A stretch of DNA of 64,000 bases, taken from positions 96,001 through 160,000 of the forward strand of contig CAWJMT010000037.1 of assembly GCA_963844035.1 (NCBI GenBank), read 5' to 3'. Origin of the DNA: an uncultured Gemmatimonadales bacterium (lineage in GTDB: Bacteria > Gemmatimonadota > Gemmatimonadetes > Gemmatimonadales > GWC2-71-9). The notes under the pieces were generated by a model. It searched no databases, had not been told where the DNA came from, and was given only the letters and a program-made list of their open reading frames with translations. Within the stretch, counting starts at the first letter, position 1, and each line of letters opens with the position of its first letter. Position numbers and translations under genes: made by a program. Shown here piece after piece: positions 24,197 through 29,676 of this stretch.

Positions 24197-25303
24197 ATGA
24201 AGATTGGGGTCCCGAAAGAGACCGCGGTCAACGAGCGCCGGGTGGCGGTGACCCCGGACGTGAGCCAGCGGCTCGTCAAAGCCGGTCTGACGGTGCTGGT
24301 CGAACGGGGCGCCGGCGAGGCGGCGTCGTTCACCGACGAGGCCTACCGCACAGCCGGCGCCGAGCTTGCCGGAACCGCGGCGGATATCGTCGGGCAGAGC
24401 GACGTCCTGCTCAAGGTGCAGCCCCCAACCACCGCGGAGGCAGGGCTGTGCCGCGAAGGGTCCGCGTTGGTGGCCCTGTTCCAACCCTCCGCCGCCCGGG
24501 AGGCCGTGGCGCGGCTCGCCAGCCGCAAAGTCACGGCCTTCAGCCTGGCGCTCCTCCCCCGGATCACGCGGGCGCAGCCGATGGACGTGCTGTCGTCCCA
24601 GGCCACCGTCGCGGGGTACCGGGCGGTGCTGATGGCCGCGATGCAGACCGGCCGGTTCTTCCCGATGCTGGTCACGGCCGCCGGCACGCTCACTCCGGCG
24701 CGCGTGCTGGTGTTGGGCGCCGGTGTTGCGGGCCTGCAGGCGATCGCCACGGCGCGGCGCCTCGGCGCCGTCGTGTCGGCGTTCGACGTGCGCCCCGCGG
24801 TCAAGGAGCAGGTCGAGAGTCTCGGGGCCAAGTTCGTCGCGATGGAGATCACCGAACAGGCGGAAACCGCCGGCGGGTACGCCACCCAGCTGTCCGACGA
24901 GACGCATCGGCGCGAGCTCGAGTTCATCGCGCAGCAAGTAAGAGACATCGACATCGTGATCACCACGGCGGCCATCCCCGGCAAGAAGGCGCCGACGCTG
25001 ATCAGCGCGGCGGCGGTCGAGGGGATGAAACCGGGCTCGGTGATCGTGGACCTGGCGGTCGAGACGGGCGGCAATTGCGAGCTGTCGCAGCCGGGGAAGG
25101 ACGTGGTGCGCAAGGGTGTCACGATCCTCGGGCCGCTGAACGTGGCGAGCACGTTGCCGTATCACGCCAGTCAGATGTACGCGCGCAACATCTCGAGCTT
25201 CCTGCTGCACCTGGTCAAGGACGGTGCGCTGGCCCTCGATTTCAATGACGAGATCATTCGCGACACGTGTGTGACTCACGCCGGGGAGGTACGGAAAACA
25301 TGA
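24197..25303 (+). CDS. pntA: NAD(P) transhydrogenase alpha subunit, domain I
   Basis: 'MKIGVPKE', 'PRITRAQPMDVLSSQ', 'GAGVAGLQAIATA', 'ASQMYARN'. Confidence 0.95.
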   Translation: MKIGVPKETAVNERRVAVTPDVSQRLVKAGLTVLVERGAGEAASFTDEAYRTAGAELAGTAADIVGQSDVLLKVQPPTTAEAGLCREGSALVALFQPSAAREAVARLASRKVTAFSLALLPRITRAQPMDVLSSQATVAGYRAVLMAAMQTGRFFPMLVTAAGTLTPARVLVLGAGVAGLQAIATARRLGAVVSAFDVRPAVKEQVESLGAKFVAMEITEQAETAGGYATQLSDETHRRELEFIAQQVRDIDIVITTAAIPGKKAPTLISAAAVEGMKPGSVIVDLAVETGGNCELSQPGKDVVRKGVTILGPLNVASTLPYHASQMYARNISSFLLHLVKDGALALDFNDEIIRDTCVTHAGEVRKT

Positions 25304-25626
25304 CCGAAGGATTGCTGGCGGCCCAGGCTGCCACGGGCGATCACGGGACGGTCGACTACTGGTCGATGCTGTTCGTGTTCGTGCTCTCGACCTTCATCGG
25401 GTTGGGCGTGATTCGGCGCGTGTCCCGGCTGCTGTACACGCCGCTCATGTCGCTCACCAACGCGATCTCGGCCATTGCGGTCGTCGGCTCGATCGTCGTC
25501 GCCGGGGCCGAGTACCCGGTCGTCATCCGAGTCATGGGAGCGGTCGCGTTGTTCGCGTCGATGACGAACATCGTGAGCGGGTTCATGATCACGGACCGCA
25601 TGCTGAAGATGTTCAAGAAGCAATGA
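25300..25626 (+). CDS. pntAB: NAD(P) transhydrogenase alpha subunit, membrane part
   Basis: 'LYTPLMSLTNAISAI', 'GFMITDRMLKMFKK'. Confidence 0.92.
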   Translation: MTEGLLAAQAATGDHGTVDYWSMLFVFVLSTFIGLGVIRRVSRLLYTPLMSLTNAISAIAVVGSIVVAGAEYPVVIRVMGAVALFASMTNIVSGFMITDRMLKMFKKQ

Positions 25627-27029
25627 CGCACGCCGTCGCCGAGTTCGCCGCCGTTCTTGCCACGGCGCTGTTCATTTTCGCGTTGTACTGGATGGGCGAC
25701 CCGAAGACCGCGCGCCGCGGTGTGATGGCGGGGATCGGGGGAATGGTCGTGGCCGTCCTGGCGACCTGGATCCAGCCGGAGATCGTGCACCACGCGTGGA
25801 TCGTCGTGGCGATTATCGCGGGCTTCGCCGTTGGCATTCCCCTGTCGCGCGTGCCGCTCACCGCCGTCCCGCAGCGGACCGCCCTCTCGCACGCGTTCGG
25901 CGGACTCGCGGCCGGCCTCGTGGGTACCGCAGAGTACTTCCTCGGCGCGGGGCACAACCCGGAGCAGCTCACGGCGTTCCGGATGAGTGCCATCGTCGTC
26001 GAGGTGATTCTGGGATTCCTCACGTTTACGGGGAGTCTCATGGCGGCCGGGAAGCTGCAGGAGGTGAAGTGGATCCCGCAGCGTCCGGTCACCTACCCGG
26101 GGCAAAACGTCGTGAACGTCGGCGTGCTGGTGCTCGCCGCGATCCTGGGTGTCCTCGTCGTGCTGCATCCGACGGCGGCCTGGTCGGGACAGGCATTCTA
26201 CGGCATCGTCGCTCTGGCGATCCTGTTCGGGGTGCTGCTTATCATCCCGATCGGGGGCGCGGACATGCCCACGGTCATCTCGATCCTGAACGCCTACGCC
26301 GGCCTCTCGGCGGTGGCGATGGGCTTCGTGCTCAACAACAAGCTGCTCGTCACGGCAGGCGCGCTGGACGGCTCGAGCGGCCTGATTCTGTCGATCATCA
26401 TGTGCCGCGCGATGAATCGCTCGTTCACGAACGTGCTGTTCGGGGCGTTCGGCACGGTGCAGAAGGCCGTGGCGGTCGGGGAGCAGAAGACCTGGAAGCA
26501 GGAGACCCCGGAGGGCGCCGCGCAGATGCTGGAGCAGGCCCGACTCGTGGTGATCGTCCCGGGATACGGGATGGCGGTGGCGCAGGCGCAGCACAAGGTG
26601 CGCGAGCTGTACGATCACCTCACCAAGCGGGGGATCACGGTCAAGTTCGCGATCCACCCGGTCGCAGGGCGAATGCCCGGCCACATGAACGTGCTGCTCG
26701 CCGAGGCCGACATTCCCTATACGGCGCTGGTCGAAATGGACGAGGTCAATCCGGAAATGCCGCAGTGCGACGTCGCACTCGTGATCGGTGCCAACGACGT
26801 TGTGAACCCGGCCGCCCGCTACGCCAAGGGGAGTCCCATCTACGGCATGCCGATCATTGCGGCGGACAAAGCCAAGACCGTCCTGGCTATCAAACGCAGC
26901 AAGAATCCCGGGTTCGCCGGGATCGACAACGAGCTGTACGTGCTCGACAATACCTGGATGTTGTTCGGCGACGCCAAGGCGGTGCTGGGCGACCTCGTGA
27001 AGCAGTTCAGCGGGGGCGGCTTACACTAG
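25623..27029 (+). CDS. pntB: NAD(P) transhydrogenase beta subunit
   Basis: 'IGGADMPTVISILN', 'HPVAGRMPGHMNVLLAEA', 'GANDVVNP'. Confidence 0.96.
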   Translation: MTHAVAEFAAVLATALFIFALYWMGDPKTARRGVMAGIGGMVVAVLATWIQPEIVHHAWIVVAIIAGFAVGIPLSRVPLTAVPQRTALSHAFGGLAAGLVGTAEYFLGAGHNPEQLTAFRMSAIVVEVILGFLTFTGSLMAAGKLQEVKWIPQRPVTYPGQNVVNVGVLVLAAILGVLVVLHPTAAWSGQAFYGIVALAILFGVLLIIPIGGADMPTVISILNAYAGLSAVAMGFVLNNKLLVTAGALDGSSGLILSIIMCRAMNRSFTNVLFGAFGTVQKAVAVGEQKTWKQETPEGAAQMLEQARLVVIVPGYGMAVAQAQHKVRELYDHLTKRGITVKFAIHPVAGRMPGHMNVLLAEADIPYTALVEMDEVNPEMPQCDVALVIGANDVVNPAARYAKGSPIYGMPIIAADKAKTVLAIKRSKNPGFAGIDNELYVLDNTWMLFGDAKAVLGDLVKQFSGGGLH

Positions 27030-27045
27030 CCGTCCTACCAGACCC

Positions 27046-28668
27046 GTGCCCCCGCTTTCCGCCACGACGTTCACGACCACCCTCGCCCTCGTGGGCGTGG
27101 TCGTGATGGTGGCGGCGCTGTTGTCGGGCGTAGTGGATCGGTGGCGCCTCCCGCAGGTCGCGGTCTTTCTGCTGCTCGGCCTCGTGCTCGGCTCGAACGG
27201 GCTCGGGCTCGTCGTCTTCGACCTCACCTCTCCCATCCTGCAGACGATCGCCACGATCGCACTCGTCCTGGTGCTGTTCACGGACGCCGTGTCGGTGGAC
27301 GTGGCCAAGGTCAGCCGGCACCGGCGCCTCGCATTCCTGGTGCTGGGCCCCGGCACGATGCTGACCGCGGGCCTCATCGCCCTCGCGGGGTGGGCGCTGC
27401 TGGGGCTGCGACCTGCGCCCGCCGTCATCCTCGGCGCGGCGCTCGCCTCCACCGACCCCGTGATGATGCGTGGCCTGCTGCGCGGGACCGACGTGCCGGG
27501 CGCCGCGCGACAGGCGCTGGGGCTCGAAAGCGGTCTCAACGACATCGTCTTGCTCCCGGTCGTGCTTGTCGCGATGGCGTTCCTCGGCGGGAGCGGCGGC
27601 GAGGCGCACTTCGGCCGCATGGCGCTGGATCTGTTCGTGCTGGGCCCAGGGGCGGGCGTCGTGCTCGGGTTCCTGGGCGTTGCCGCGCTCGACCAGGTGC
27701 GCCGCAAGCTCACCGTACGCCGCGACTACGAATCGCTGTACGCCCTCGGCGTCGCGTTCACGGCGTACGCGGCGGCGGAGGCCGTGCACGGCAGCGGGTT
27801 CCTGGCCGCGTTCACCGCCGGCCTGACGATTGCCGTGGTCGATGCCGAGCTGTGCGATTGCTTTCTCGATTTCGGCCAGGCGGCCGCCGAGATGTTTCTC
27901 TTGCTGACGTTTGTGGCGCTTGGCAGCTCGCTCATCTGGACCGGGCTCTCCGGCGTCACCTGGGCCGCGCTCGCGTTCGCAGGGATAGCCCTGTTTGCCC
28001 GCTCAGCGGTGCTGCTCGTGGCGCTGCGCGGCCAGCCGCTCGACCCCCGCAGTCGTCGCCTGATCGTCTGGTTCGGGCCGCGCGGCCTGAGCTCGCTGCT
28101 GCTGGTGCTGCTCCCGGTATTCGCGGGCCTCCCGGGCGCGGAGGGGTTGTTTGCCCCAGCCGCACTGGTCGTGCTGTTATCGGTCGTGATTCACGGCGGA
28201 GCGCAGATGATCCTGGGGAAGGGGGACGGGGGAAGAGGGAAGGGCGCTCCCTTGCCGATCGCCGACGCGGCTCCCGCTTCCGACCCGGTGCCCAGGAACG
28301 ATCTTGTTGCGAACACTGAGACGATCACGCTGGATGAGCTGCGACGGGTGCAGGCCGCCGGTGAACGCGTCTGGCTGCTCGACGTGCGGAAGGAGGGGGC
28401 CTACAGCGAGGCGGACACCCAGGCGCGCGGTGCACTTCGCGTGTCACCCGATGGCAACGTTGCGGTACGCGCCGCGGAGCTCGCGCTGCCGCGCCACGAC
28501 TGGCTCGTCGCATACTGCGCCTGACACAGCGAAGCCACAAGCGCCCGGGTGGCGCTAAGCTTGAGAAAAGCCGGCTGGTCCAGGGCGCGGGCCCTGGTGG
28601 GTGGGTGGACGGTGTGGCAGGCGGCGGAGATGCCGGTGGAGCCGAAGCCCGCTACTCCTCCTGGATGA
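27046..28668 (+). CDS. Cation:proton antiporter (CPA1/NhaP-like) fused to C-terminal rhodanese domain; in-frame TGA at 28522-28524 probably selenocysteine
   Basis: 'ASTDPV', 'ESGLND', 'WFGPRGLSS'; rhodanese 'LLDVRK...VAYCA[TGA]HSEATSARVALSLRKAGWSRARALVGGWTVWQAAEMPVEPK' continues in frame to TGA at 28668. Confidence 0.85.
28532..28562 (+). promoter_or_regulatory. Bacterial SECIS-like hairpin
   Basis: AAGC-caca-AGCGCC-cgggt-GGCGCT-aa-GCTT; apical loop begins 21 nt after the UGA. Confidence 0.7.
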
Positions 28669-29137
28669 CGGTGATCTTGTACCCGTCGGGGTCGGTGATC
28701 GCGAACGCGTAGTCGCCCCACGGGGTTTCCCGGGGCTCGTAGTCCAACCGGACGCCGCTCGCCTTGATGCGGGCGGCGATCGCCGCGATGTCCTGCGCCG
28801 TCGCGAGCCACAGCCGCACCCCGTCACCTTTCGCGCGATCGCGGCCCTTCGTGAAATCGTCCTGCGACAGCATCAGGTCGCACACGCCCGCTTTCATCTG
28901 TATGCCCAGCAGTTTCCCGTTGTCTTCCCATCGCTCCCCCGGCCAGAAGCGCAGCACATCGCGGTACCAGGCGATGCTGCGCGTCAGGTCGTTCACCGTG
29001 AGCGAGGCGGCCAGGGAACGCAGCCGCAGCGACTCGGGCTGCTGGCGTTGAGCGAGCGCGGGGGACTTCGGGGCACGCTTCGGGGTGGACTTCTTCGGTG
29101 CGGGTTTGCGGGCGGGCTTCTTTTTCTTGGGCGCCAT
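28652..29137 (-). CDS. VOC/glyoxalase family protein with Lys/Pro-rich N-terminal tail
   Basis: 'LTVNDLTRSIAWYRDVL', 'PWGDYAFAITDPDGYKI'. Confidence 0.88.
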   Translation of the reverse strand: MAPKKKKPARKPAPKKSTPKRAPKSPALAQRQQPESLRLRSLAASLTVNDLTRSIAWYRDVLRFWPGERWEDNGKLLGIQMKAGVCDLMLSQDDFTKGRDRAKGDGVRLWLATAQDIAAIAARIKASGVRLDYEPRETPWGDYAFAITDPDGYKITVIQEE

Positions 29138-29247
29138 CGGACGTCCCTCCCTGGTACGGTCCGGAATCGAGGCATGGACGGGAGCAAGCGTAGCGTCCGG
29201 TGCACCCTTGCGCCAGATTTCACGCCCCCACGCTCACGGAGCCTGTC

Positions 29248-29676
29248 ATGACCACCAGTCGCGCCAGCGCCGTATGGGAAGGCAAGCTTAAGGACGGGAA
29301 AGGCAGCTACAAGGCGGCGAGCGGGACCTTCAGCGGCGCCTATTCGTTTCGTACACGATTTGAGGGAGCCGCGGGCTCGACCCCCGAGGAGCTGCTCGCC
29401 GCCGCCCACGCGGCGTGCTACAGCATGGCGCTGTCCCATGACCTCGATGGGGCCGGCACCCCGGCGACTCGGGTGACCACGGAGGCCGCCTGCACCATCG
29501 ACAAGGTGGGTGACGGCTTCAAGATCACCACGATGGAGCTCAAGGTGCGCGGGAAGGTGCCGGGGATCGACCAGGCCAAGTTCCAGCGGGTGGCCGAAGC
29601 GGCAAAGAACGGCTGTCCGGTGTCTGGCGCGCTCAAGGGCAACGTGCAGATAAAGCTCGACGCGAAGCTCGAGTAA
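29248..29676 (+). CDS. osmC: OsmC family peroxiredoxin
   Basis: 'VWEGKLKDGKG', 'PEELLAAAHAACYSMAL', 'AKNGCPVS'. Confidence 0.93.
   Translation: MTTSRASAVWEGKLKDGKGSYKAASGTFSGAYSFRTRFEGAAGSTPEELLAAAHAACYSMALSHDLDGAGTPATRVTTEAACTIDKVGDGFKITTMELKVRGKVPGIDQAKFQRVAEAAKNGCPVSGALKGNVQIKLDAKLE

Follow-up and report, generated by a model that had tools for sequence, protein, structure and literature searches.

A predicted selenoprotein of soil bacteria in which a cation/proton antiporter is fused to a CxU rhodanese domain

The window, the whole stretch of 64,000 nucleotides analysed here, contains a gene at 27046..28668 on the forward strand (+), as are all features described below unless stated otherwise. 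Under translation table 11 its frame holds a single internal stop, the TGA at 28522-28524 (codon 493), which comes directly behind ...VAYCA; a further 47 sense codons lead up to the TGA at 28666-28668. An earlier note on this DNA, made from the letters alone, had observed that the ORF track halts at ...VAYCA while the frame continues for 47 codons of rhodanese sequence, and this was borne out. With codon 493 read as selenocysteine (Sec), the gene would encode 540 residues comprising a CPA1 antiporter, a flexible linker and a CxU rhodanese domain; Pfam assigned Na_H_Exchanger to residues 22-385 of the read-through product and a complete Rhodanese domain to residues 429-527 (profile positions 2-102 of 102), and no other Pfam family, KTN/RCK included, scored above cut-off. 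The only Cys or Sec residues of the protein are C270, C272, C491 and U493.

The transhydrogenase genes pntA-pntA2-pntB (24197..27029) end 16 bases upstream of the antiporter gene, an arrangement that is conserved among close kin and is taken as context only. At the other end, a convergent glyoxalase-family gene on the opposite strand (28652-29137) overlaps the antiporter 3' end by 17 bases. An ORF at 29200-29676 was considered as OsmC and rejected, as it gave no Pfam match at E 1e-5. Across 44 loci, pntB was found upstream in 14, no other family exceeded 16, and other lineages had unrelated neighbours. Among 14 recurring neighbour proteins scanned, none belonged to metal-resistance or sulfur-metabolism families. 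As the 44 loci revealed no conserved functional partner, the gene neighbourhood was dismissed as a pointer to function.

To determine how codon 493 behaves across the family, 82 loci were examined, of which five end short of this column. The loci came from 61 related genomes (seven with a match), from GTDB species genomes (46 loci) and from 401 genomes of the phylum (30 loci). TGA occupied the column in 77/77 loci reaching it, corresponding to 68 distinct loci after removal of duplicates, and TAA or TAG occurred in none of the 68. Within the 401 phylum genomes, 57 matched at E 1e-25, and the 29 of these that were full-length with at least 52% identity all contained the internal TGA. Two loci (L013 and L067, from genomes G020 and G098, which are marked unpublished) are included in the counts for codon, hairpin, synonymous sites and CxC, and no claim depends on them. 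The earlier note would have given way had relatives lacked coding conservation after the TGA; instead, the frame beyond it is open for 41-68 codons in the 77 loci, and in the aligned loci the downstream residues are conserved while synonymous change runs free. In L026 the tail is frameshifted.

Pairing of the TGA with Cys, for which the earlier note had suggested aligning homologues, was evident at the protein level. Among the best 120 protein matches, 108 end at [YF]Cx, the protein of the window among them, another 11 continue through the site as CxCP, and one diverges before this point; the 108 shortened entries are known as proteins only. All 11 full-length homologues carry Cys at the U493 column. 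Overall, 30 Cys-form proteins were recovered, and the distant protein P0174, with Thr at this position, was the sole exception to Cys among the read-through proteins inspected. The recovered Cys forms read CxCP, a pattern in which the search itself demanded Pro, while the position following Sec varies widely in the Sec forms. The earlier note had placed the TGA at the Cys position of the rhodanese; a Cys in homologues is indeed found there, but the catalytic-Cys column is that of C491, and the TGA follows two residues later within the C491-A-U493 motif (28516..28524).

Alternatively, the TGA might terminate translation or result from a sequencing mistake, the downstream frame being a relic. 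The assembly does contain frame breaks, even in selA and selB. However, 41 contigs from four independent runs covering 28490-28570 contained no letter other than TGA at 28522-28524, so that an assembly error can be dismissed, in line with the earlier reading of an in-frame codon rather than an indel. Together with the exclusive use of TGA in 68 distinct loci, the conserved residues downstream and the Cys in all inspected read-through homologues but one, the agreement of independent contigs computationally refutes a stop or an error, which we regard as exceedingly improbable.

Bacterial SECIS elements are hairpins with a G in the loop, located at a set spacing 3' of the UGA. A predicted SECIS lies at 28532..28562, with a conserved stem (28541-28545 / 28551-28555), the loop CGGGT (28546-28550) and a variable lower stem; in letters, AGCGCC (28540-28545) and GGCGCT (28551-28556) flank the loop, and AAGC (28532-28535) faces GCTT (28559-28562). 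This is the structure, AGCGCC-cgggt-GGCGCT with AAGC/GCTT directly after the TGA, that the earlier note had described. Its position and upper stem hold: the 5-bp upper stem is paired in 65/65 distinct rows, stem pairs 22-32 and 23-31 each display seven double-sided changes in these rows, and control stems slid along the alignment were paired in 15-42%. Because the rows share ancestry and the substitutions also affect the encoded protein, the stem cells do not represent independent events. RNAalifold returned the same five pairs without the lower stem; as a conserved part of the element the latter is weak, being preserved in part (82.6% of cells). The synonymous sites give the stronger indication of selection on the RNA: across the gene, 284 columns are four-fold degenerate (62 rows), and third-base entropy was zero at codons 500, 502 and 503 only, all within the hairpin; codons 498, 501 and 504 were also among the nine lowest-entropy columns, and codons 498 and 504 were the only four-fold columns with an A/T majority.

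In itself the hairpin is unremarkable and as such leaves room for a true stop. Its folding stability did not exceed chance (z -0.58 to -0.98), and of the 79,088 TGA triplets in this GC-rich genome, 23,955 (30%) are followed by a hairpin of the generic G-loop kind; stability was thus rejected as stand-alone evidence. The weight of the hairpin comes from its conservation, that is, complete pairing in 65/65 rows and double-sided changes, which indicates that the hairpin is under selection as RNA.

Further observations were made at this element. The third bases of codons +5 and +11 (28539 and 28557; alignment columns 18 and 36) covary, being mostly A/A, G/C in eight rows and C/G in one, a pattern that carries the stem on past an A-G mismatch. 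In many soil contigs the match is limited to the CxU codons and the hairpin (28505-28556), and both flanks differ from the window. One SECIS sequence thus appears to be common to other genes, which are probably other CxU rhodaneses. The single RNA run with matches (X20) yielded two short contigs that cover only the 40-base CxU/hairpin stretch and stem from other genes.

The earlier note had also proposed to look for the Sec machinery, and the genome contains all of it: selA (C35:264033-265353) and selB (C3:152940-154801; winged-helix and SelB barrel domains), each split over two frames, probably by assembly indels, as well as selD, with Cys rather than Sec at the GCACK motif, and a tRNA-Sec with anticodon TCA. 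Among 80 selected genomes, selA was detected in 36/38 carriers of the gene and 37/42 non-carriers (73/80 in total). Both carriers without a selA match have selB, the Actinomycetes carrier has selA, and of the five non-carriers without selA, the three tested also lack selB. Since selA is near-universal in the phylum, co-occurrence of the Sec trait hardly discriminates and was set aside as a test. The proposal of a probable selenoprotein is nevertheless consistent with Cys/TGA pairing, a covarying hairpin, the Sec machinery and coding conservation past the TGA, all of which agree; none of the refuting outcomes named in the earlier note was observed, and TGA 493 is almost certainly read as Sec by way of a SelB-bound hairpin.

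The consequences for annotation were as the earlier note had expected. Shortening of the gene is apparent in the 108/120 best protein matches that end at [YF]Cx, and in a second protein search 97 of 107 rhodanese-bearing matches were cut at the predicted Sec codon. Gene callers thus very likely lose 47 C-terminal residues of a widespread soil-bacterial protein. Because public protein sets end the family at the Sec codon, the label 'cation:proton antiporter' conceals what is predicted to be a common membrane selenoprotein of soil bacteria. The matches include a cultured carrier, Ktedonospora formicarum (P0313, ending at YCA), and natural Cys forms such as P0003 could be expressed without recoding.

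The transmembrane domain (residues 6-392, 27061..28221) is of the 13-helix NhaP/CPA1 type (Pfam PF00999, E 7.8e-36), with PaNhaP and MjNhaP1 as the best matches both by profile and by Foldseek, PaNhaP being the best PDB match. AlphaFold2 modelling of the full-length protein predicted 13 membrane helices (mean pLDDT 90.7, pTM 0.85), followed by a long, variable and disordered linker of low pLDDT (residues 396-422). All elements of the CPA motif (xTDx, Glu5, Asn6-Asp7, Arg8) are present: the ion-binding motif STDP (135-138, 27448..27459; positions 1-4 according to PMC6181914) in 62/62 rows, E161, N165 and D166 (27526..27543), likewise in 62/62, and their partner R319 (28000-28002) in 61/62. G344 is invariant in the 62 rows, and P345 and R346 are each found in 60/62. 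The near-invariant DYESLY (227-232, 27724..27741) at the start of helix 8 aligns with the Glu233 region of PaNhaP. According to the same source, STDP together with E/ND/R marks an electroneutral CPA1 exchanger, in which Ser at position 1 leans towards K+ and Pro at position 4 towards Na+ (PMC6181914); the choice between K+ and Na+ is therefore ambiguous here. In NCBIfam the membrane domain scored best with PRK05326 models, reaching 87.5-139.7 bits, far short of their cut-offs of 309-471. The tail is predicted to be cytoplasmic because helix 1 begins outside, as in PaNhaP, and the helices number 13. In all likelihood, judging by analogy with PaNhaP, K+ or Na+ is exchanged for H+ electroneutrally by a dimer whose C-termini face the cytoplasm.

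The C-terminal tail (429-527, 28330..28626) is a rhodanese-like domain (Pfam Rhodanese) and a relative of NF041203 (rhodanese_LYCAU). Folded alone, it adopted a single-domain rhodanese structure (pLDDT 95.7) with a TM of about 0.7 to solved rhodaneses. In the full-length model, the pTM of 0.85 exceeds the approximately 0.73 that, by our own arithmetic, would be attainable from the 392-residue membrane domain alone; the tail therefore appears to be placed with some confidence in the prediction. The best NCBIfam match of the tail was NF041203, 'rhodanese-related (seleno)protein' (E 1.7e-24), and the CxU loop in a rhodanese fold that this family describes is present, although the scores of tail (85.9 bits) and whole protein (81.6) remain below the cut-off of 115. 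P0086, whose rhodanese part consists of two CxC domains in tandem, is the only family member to pass this cut-off, by summing both domains. A weak similarity to the chromate-resistance rhodanese ChrE was also found.

The position of C491, invariant and in the rhodanese catalytic column, raises the possibility that the tail is a sulfur or selenium transferase or a persulfide sensor, in which C491 would carry a persulfide that U493 resolves, and sulfane sulfur or selenite would be the signal, or a substrate passed to a second CxC in the transporter. The fold, matching single-domain rhodaneses, is in accordance with such a role. Canonical thiosulfate sulfurtransferases, however, have a six-residue active loop in which a basic residue follows the catalytic Cys, whereas the loop of the tail is two residues longer than that of 6mxv, has no Arg and instead carries the invariant Glu E496 (62/62). 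Classical thiosulfate sulfur transfer by the tail is disfavoured on account of this longer loop without Arg. As sulfur-metabolism families were also absent from the scanned neighbours, we consider the transferase or sensor function rather improbable.

The second CxC, C270-D-C272 (27853..27861), is situated at the start of helix 10 and is the predicted switch of the transporter. It is present in 62/62 rows, five and three residues before the position of PaNhaP His292. The motif LCxCF was found in 243/247 collected rhodanese-bearing proteins of at least 400 residues; of the four exceptions two look frameshifted, one reads LCDYF and one is without the motif. In one search the CxC occurred in 107/107 rhodanese-bearing proteins, compared to 0/80 plain NhaP loci. 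Cys at both helix-10 columns was also observed in seven distant tail-less CPA1 proteins (P0197, P0204, P0219, P0249, P0252, P0253 and P0260), whose redox partner, if any, may be a separate protein.

In a profile alignment (about 21% identity, with a 14-residue insertion adjacent), D275 fell on PaNhaP His292, C272 on Lys289 and C270 on Ile287 (counted along the alignment); this count is consistent with T129/D130 and E290 as given in PMC4381880. As described there, at the two-fold axis helix 10 of PaNhaP extends 11 Å into the cytoplasm, coupling of the protomers runs through His292, and a disulfide in the H292C mutant sets activity to 35% when oxidised and 150% when reduced (PMC4381880). The other side of the His292 network, near Glu233, aligns with the near-invariant DYESLY of the window family. 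A search for inter-domain coevolution by mean-field DCA (316 rows, Neff about 124) gave noise and no usable contacts, the invariant Cys columns being without signal.

A membrane-domain tree was calculated from 83 of 112 rows (quick IQ-TREE, SH-aLRT only), with which a FastTree of all 112 rows agreed. The named locus records comprise Gemmatimonadota, one 'bacterium HR33' and one Actinomycetes; source names in the protein match lists add Chloroflexota, Acidobacteriota, Ca. Manganitrophus and Gammaproteobacteria. The Cys forms require 10 changes on the tree, at least six of them forced by well-supported branches, and the Cys forms P0003 and P0004 group with the window's gene, surrounded by Sec forms. 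As Cys replaces Sec repeatedly, selenium is not essential. In P0142 and P0143, two proteins that diverge before the rhodanese clade on two branches, the CxC is retained, yet the sequence stops at ...RGHW within an AhpC/TSA domain, suggesting that the transporter gained a thiol-redox partner of a second fold. This end point matches the U site of Sec-containing peroxiredoxin-like proteins (RGxWU, in the deep-Sep supplement), and P0142/P0143 represent a probable second, independent Sec fusion, a candidate known from the protein alone. In a metagenome scan the peroxiredoxin-type fusion was not found; 80 of 95 confirmed loci were returned, all plain NhaP.

These data bear on two further explanations. 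The four Cys/Sec residues could be ligands of soft metals or metalloids (Cu, Ag, Hg, Zn or As(III)), with the tail sensing or delivering the ion and the CxC forming an inter-subunit site that gates exchange or exports the metal. Both the CxC and the CxU with its invariant Glu E496 (62/62) would suit metal binding, most predicted Sec-bearing transporters are tied to metal resistance according to PMC13188914, and the similarity to ChrE points in the same direction. The alkali-cation motif, however, is intact, the alternative tail is a peroxiredoxin-type domain and no metal chaperone, and none of the 14 recurring neighbour proteins scanned is a metal-resistance family, so that metal ligation appears unlikely, if less so than sulfur transfer. 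The tail could also be a membrane-anchored redox enzyme independent of transport, the transporter CxC being structural. Such an arrangement would fit the existence of stand-alone CxU rhodaneses, the long and variable linker of low pLDDT, and DedA-rhodanese fusions that are in print with no known functional link (PMC10127716). It is at odds with the tight co-conservation of CxC and tail (243/247), with the occurrence of another redox fold in this transporter clade (P0142, P0143) and with the high pTM of the whole chain (0.85), and we regard it as highly unlikely.

The earlier note had suggested a transporter gated by, or coupled to, redox or sulfur/selenium transfer. In the reading that we prefer, the tethered domain would control the transporter. 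SelB would bind the hairpin and Sec be inserted at position 493; the protein would carry out electroneutral K+ or Na+/H+ exchange as a dimer with cytoplasmic C-termini; oxidation of, or an adduct at, C270/C272 would lock or loosen the protomer interface and so shift turnover; and the CxU loop would set or reset the state of C270/C272 by thiol/selenol exchange, so that redox or electrophile stress would be tied to cation balance and cytoplasmic pH. A redox or metal gate would now have a concrete target in the co-conserved CxC on helix 10. The whole chain, from Sec insertion to a thiol/selenol-gated cation/H+ antiporter, has in our estimate a little less than an even chance of being correct. Still more tentatively, we propose a widespread and so far unannotated family of selenium-dependent, redox-gated antiporters in soil Gemmatimonadota, Chloroflexota, Acidobacteriota and Actinomycetota, in which a tethered Sec domain, a rhodanese in most members and peroxiredoxin-like in two basal ones, reversibly switches disulfides at the allosteric dimer interface. 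If so, it would be a natural counterpart of the engineered H292C switch of PaNhaP, through which redox stress would act on pH and K+/Na+ balance.

The CxU rhodanese itself is known as a predicted selenoprotein type (NF041203) and is listed as such in PMC13188914 and PMC9312934; its function is given as predicted only in the former. The antiporter-CxU rhodanese fusion is what was not found in print, in full-text searches of the openly accessible literature. The string 'antiport' occurs zero times in the main texts of PMC13188914, PMC9312934, deep-Sep and BSepDB, and 'antiporter' zero times in the deep-Sep supplements and the examined part of the BSepDB supplement; the word antiporter is also absent from the 2026 review of prokaryotic selenoproteins (PMC13188914). 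The fusion may provide a first concrete lead on the role of CxU rhodaneses, as its partner CxC lies at a site controlling NhaP turnover.

With rhodanese-like 'form 3' / 'COG0607 form 2' (NF041203) the tail shares the fold, the CxU at the loop and the E..TSA and GGW motifs, while positions 1-17 of the 126-position model are unmatched by the tail. The NF041203-type example in the deep-Sep supplement is small, stands alone and begins with a hydrophobic stretch resembling a signal sequence, whereas the domain studied here forms the predicted cytoplasmic end of an antiporter with 13 helices. NhaP2/CvrA/YcgO (PRK05326, best NCBIfam score 139.7 bits) are likewise CPA1 proteins with a regulatory C-terminal region, but the match ends at residue 385 and the tail of the window protein is a rhodanese. 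In NhaP2/CvrA/YcgO the tail is RCK_C/CorC. The relation to KefB/KefC is one of shared logic only, in that a cytosolic domain reads thiol or electrophile status and gates K+/H+ exchange (PMC10224563); Kef proteins are CPA2 with a KTN/RCK domain, a non-covalent glutathione ligand and no selenium, and the window protein is no member. PaNhaP and MjNhaP1 (PDB 4cz8, 4cza, 4czb) are alike in TDP, ND, the Glu-Arg pair, the GPR motif and 13 helices. However, they have no soluble tail and read ATDP where the window protein, at about 21% identity, reads STDP, and at the position of PaNhaP His292 the window family has Asp or Glu, preceded by the CxC.
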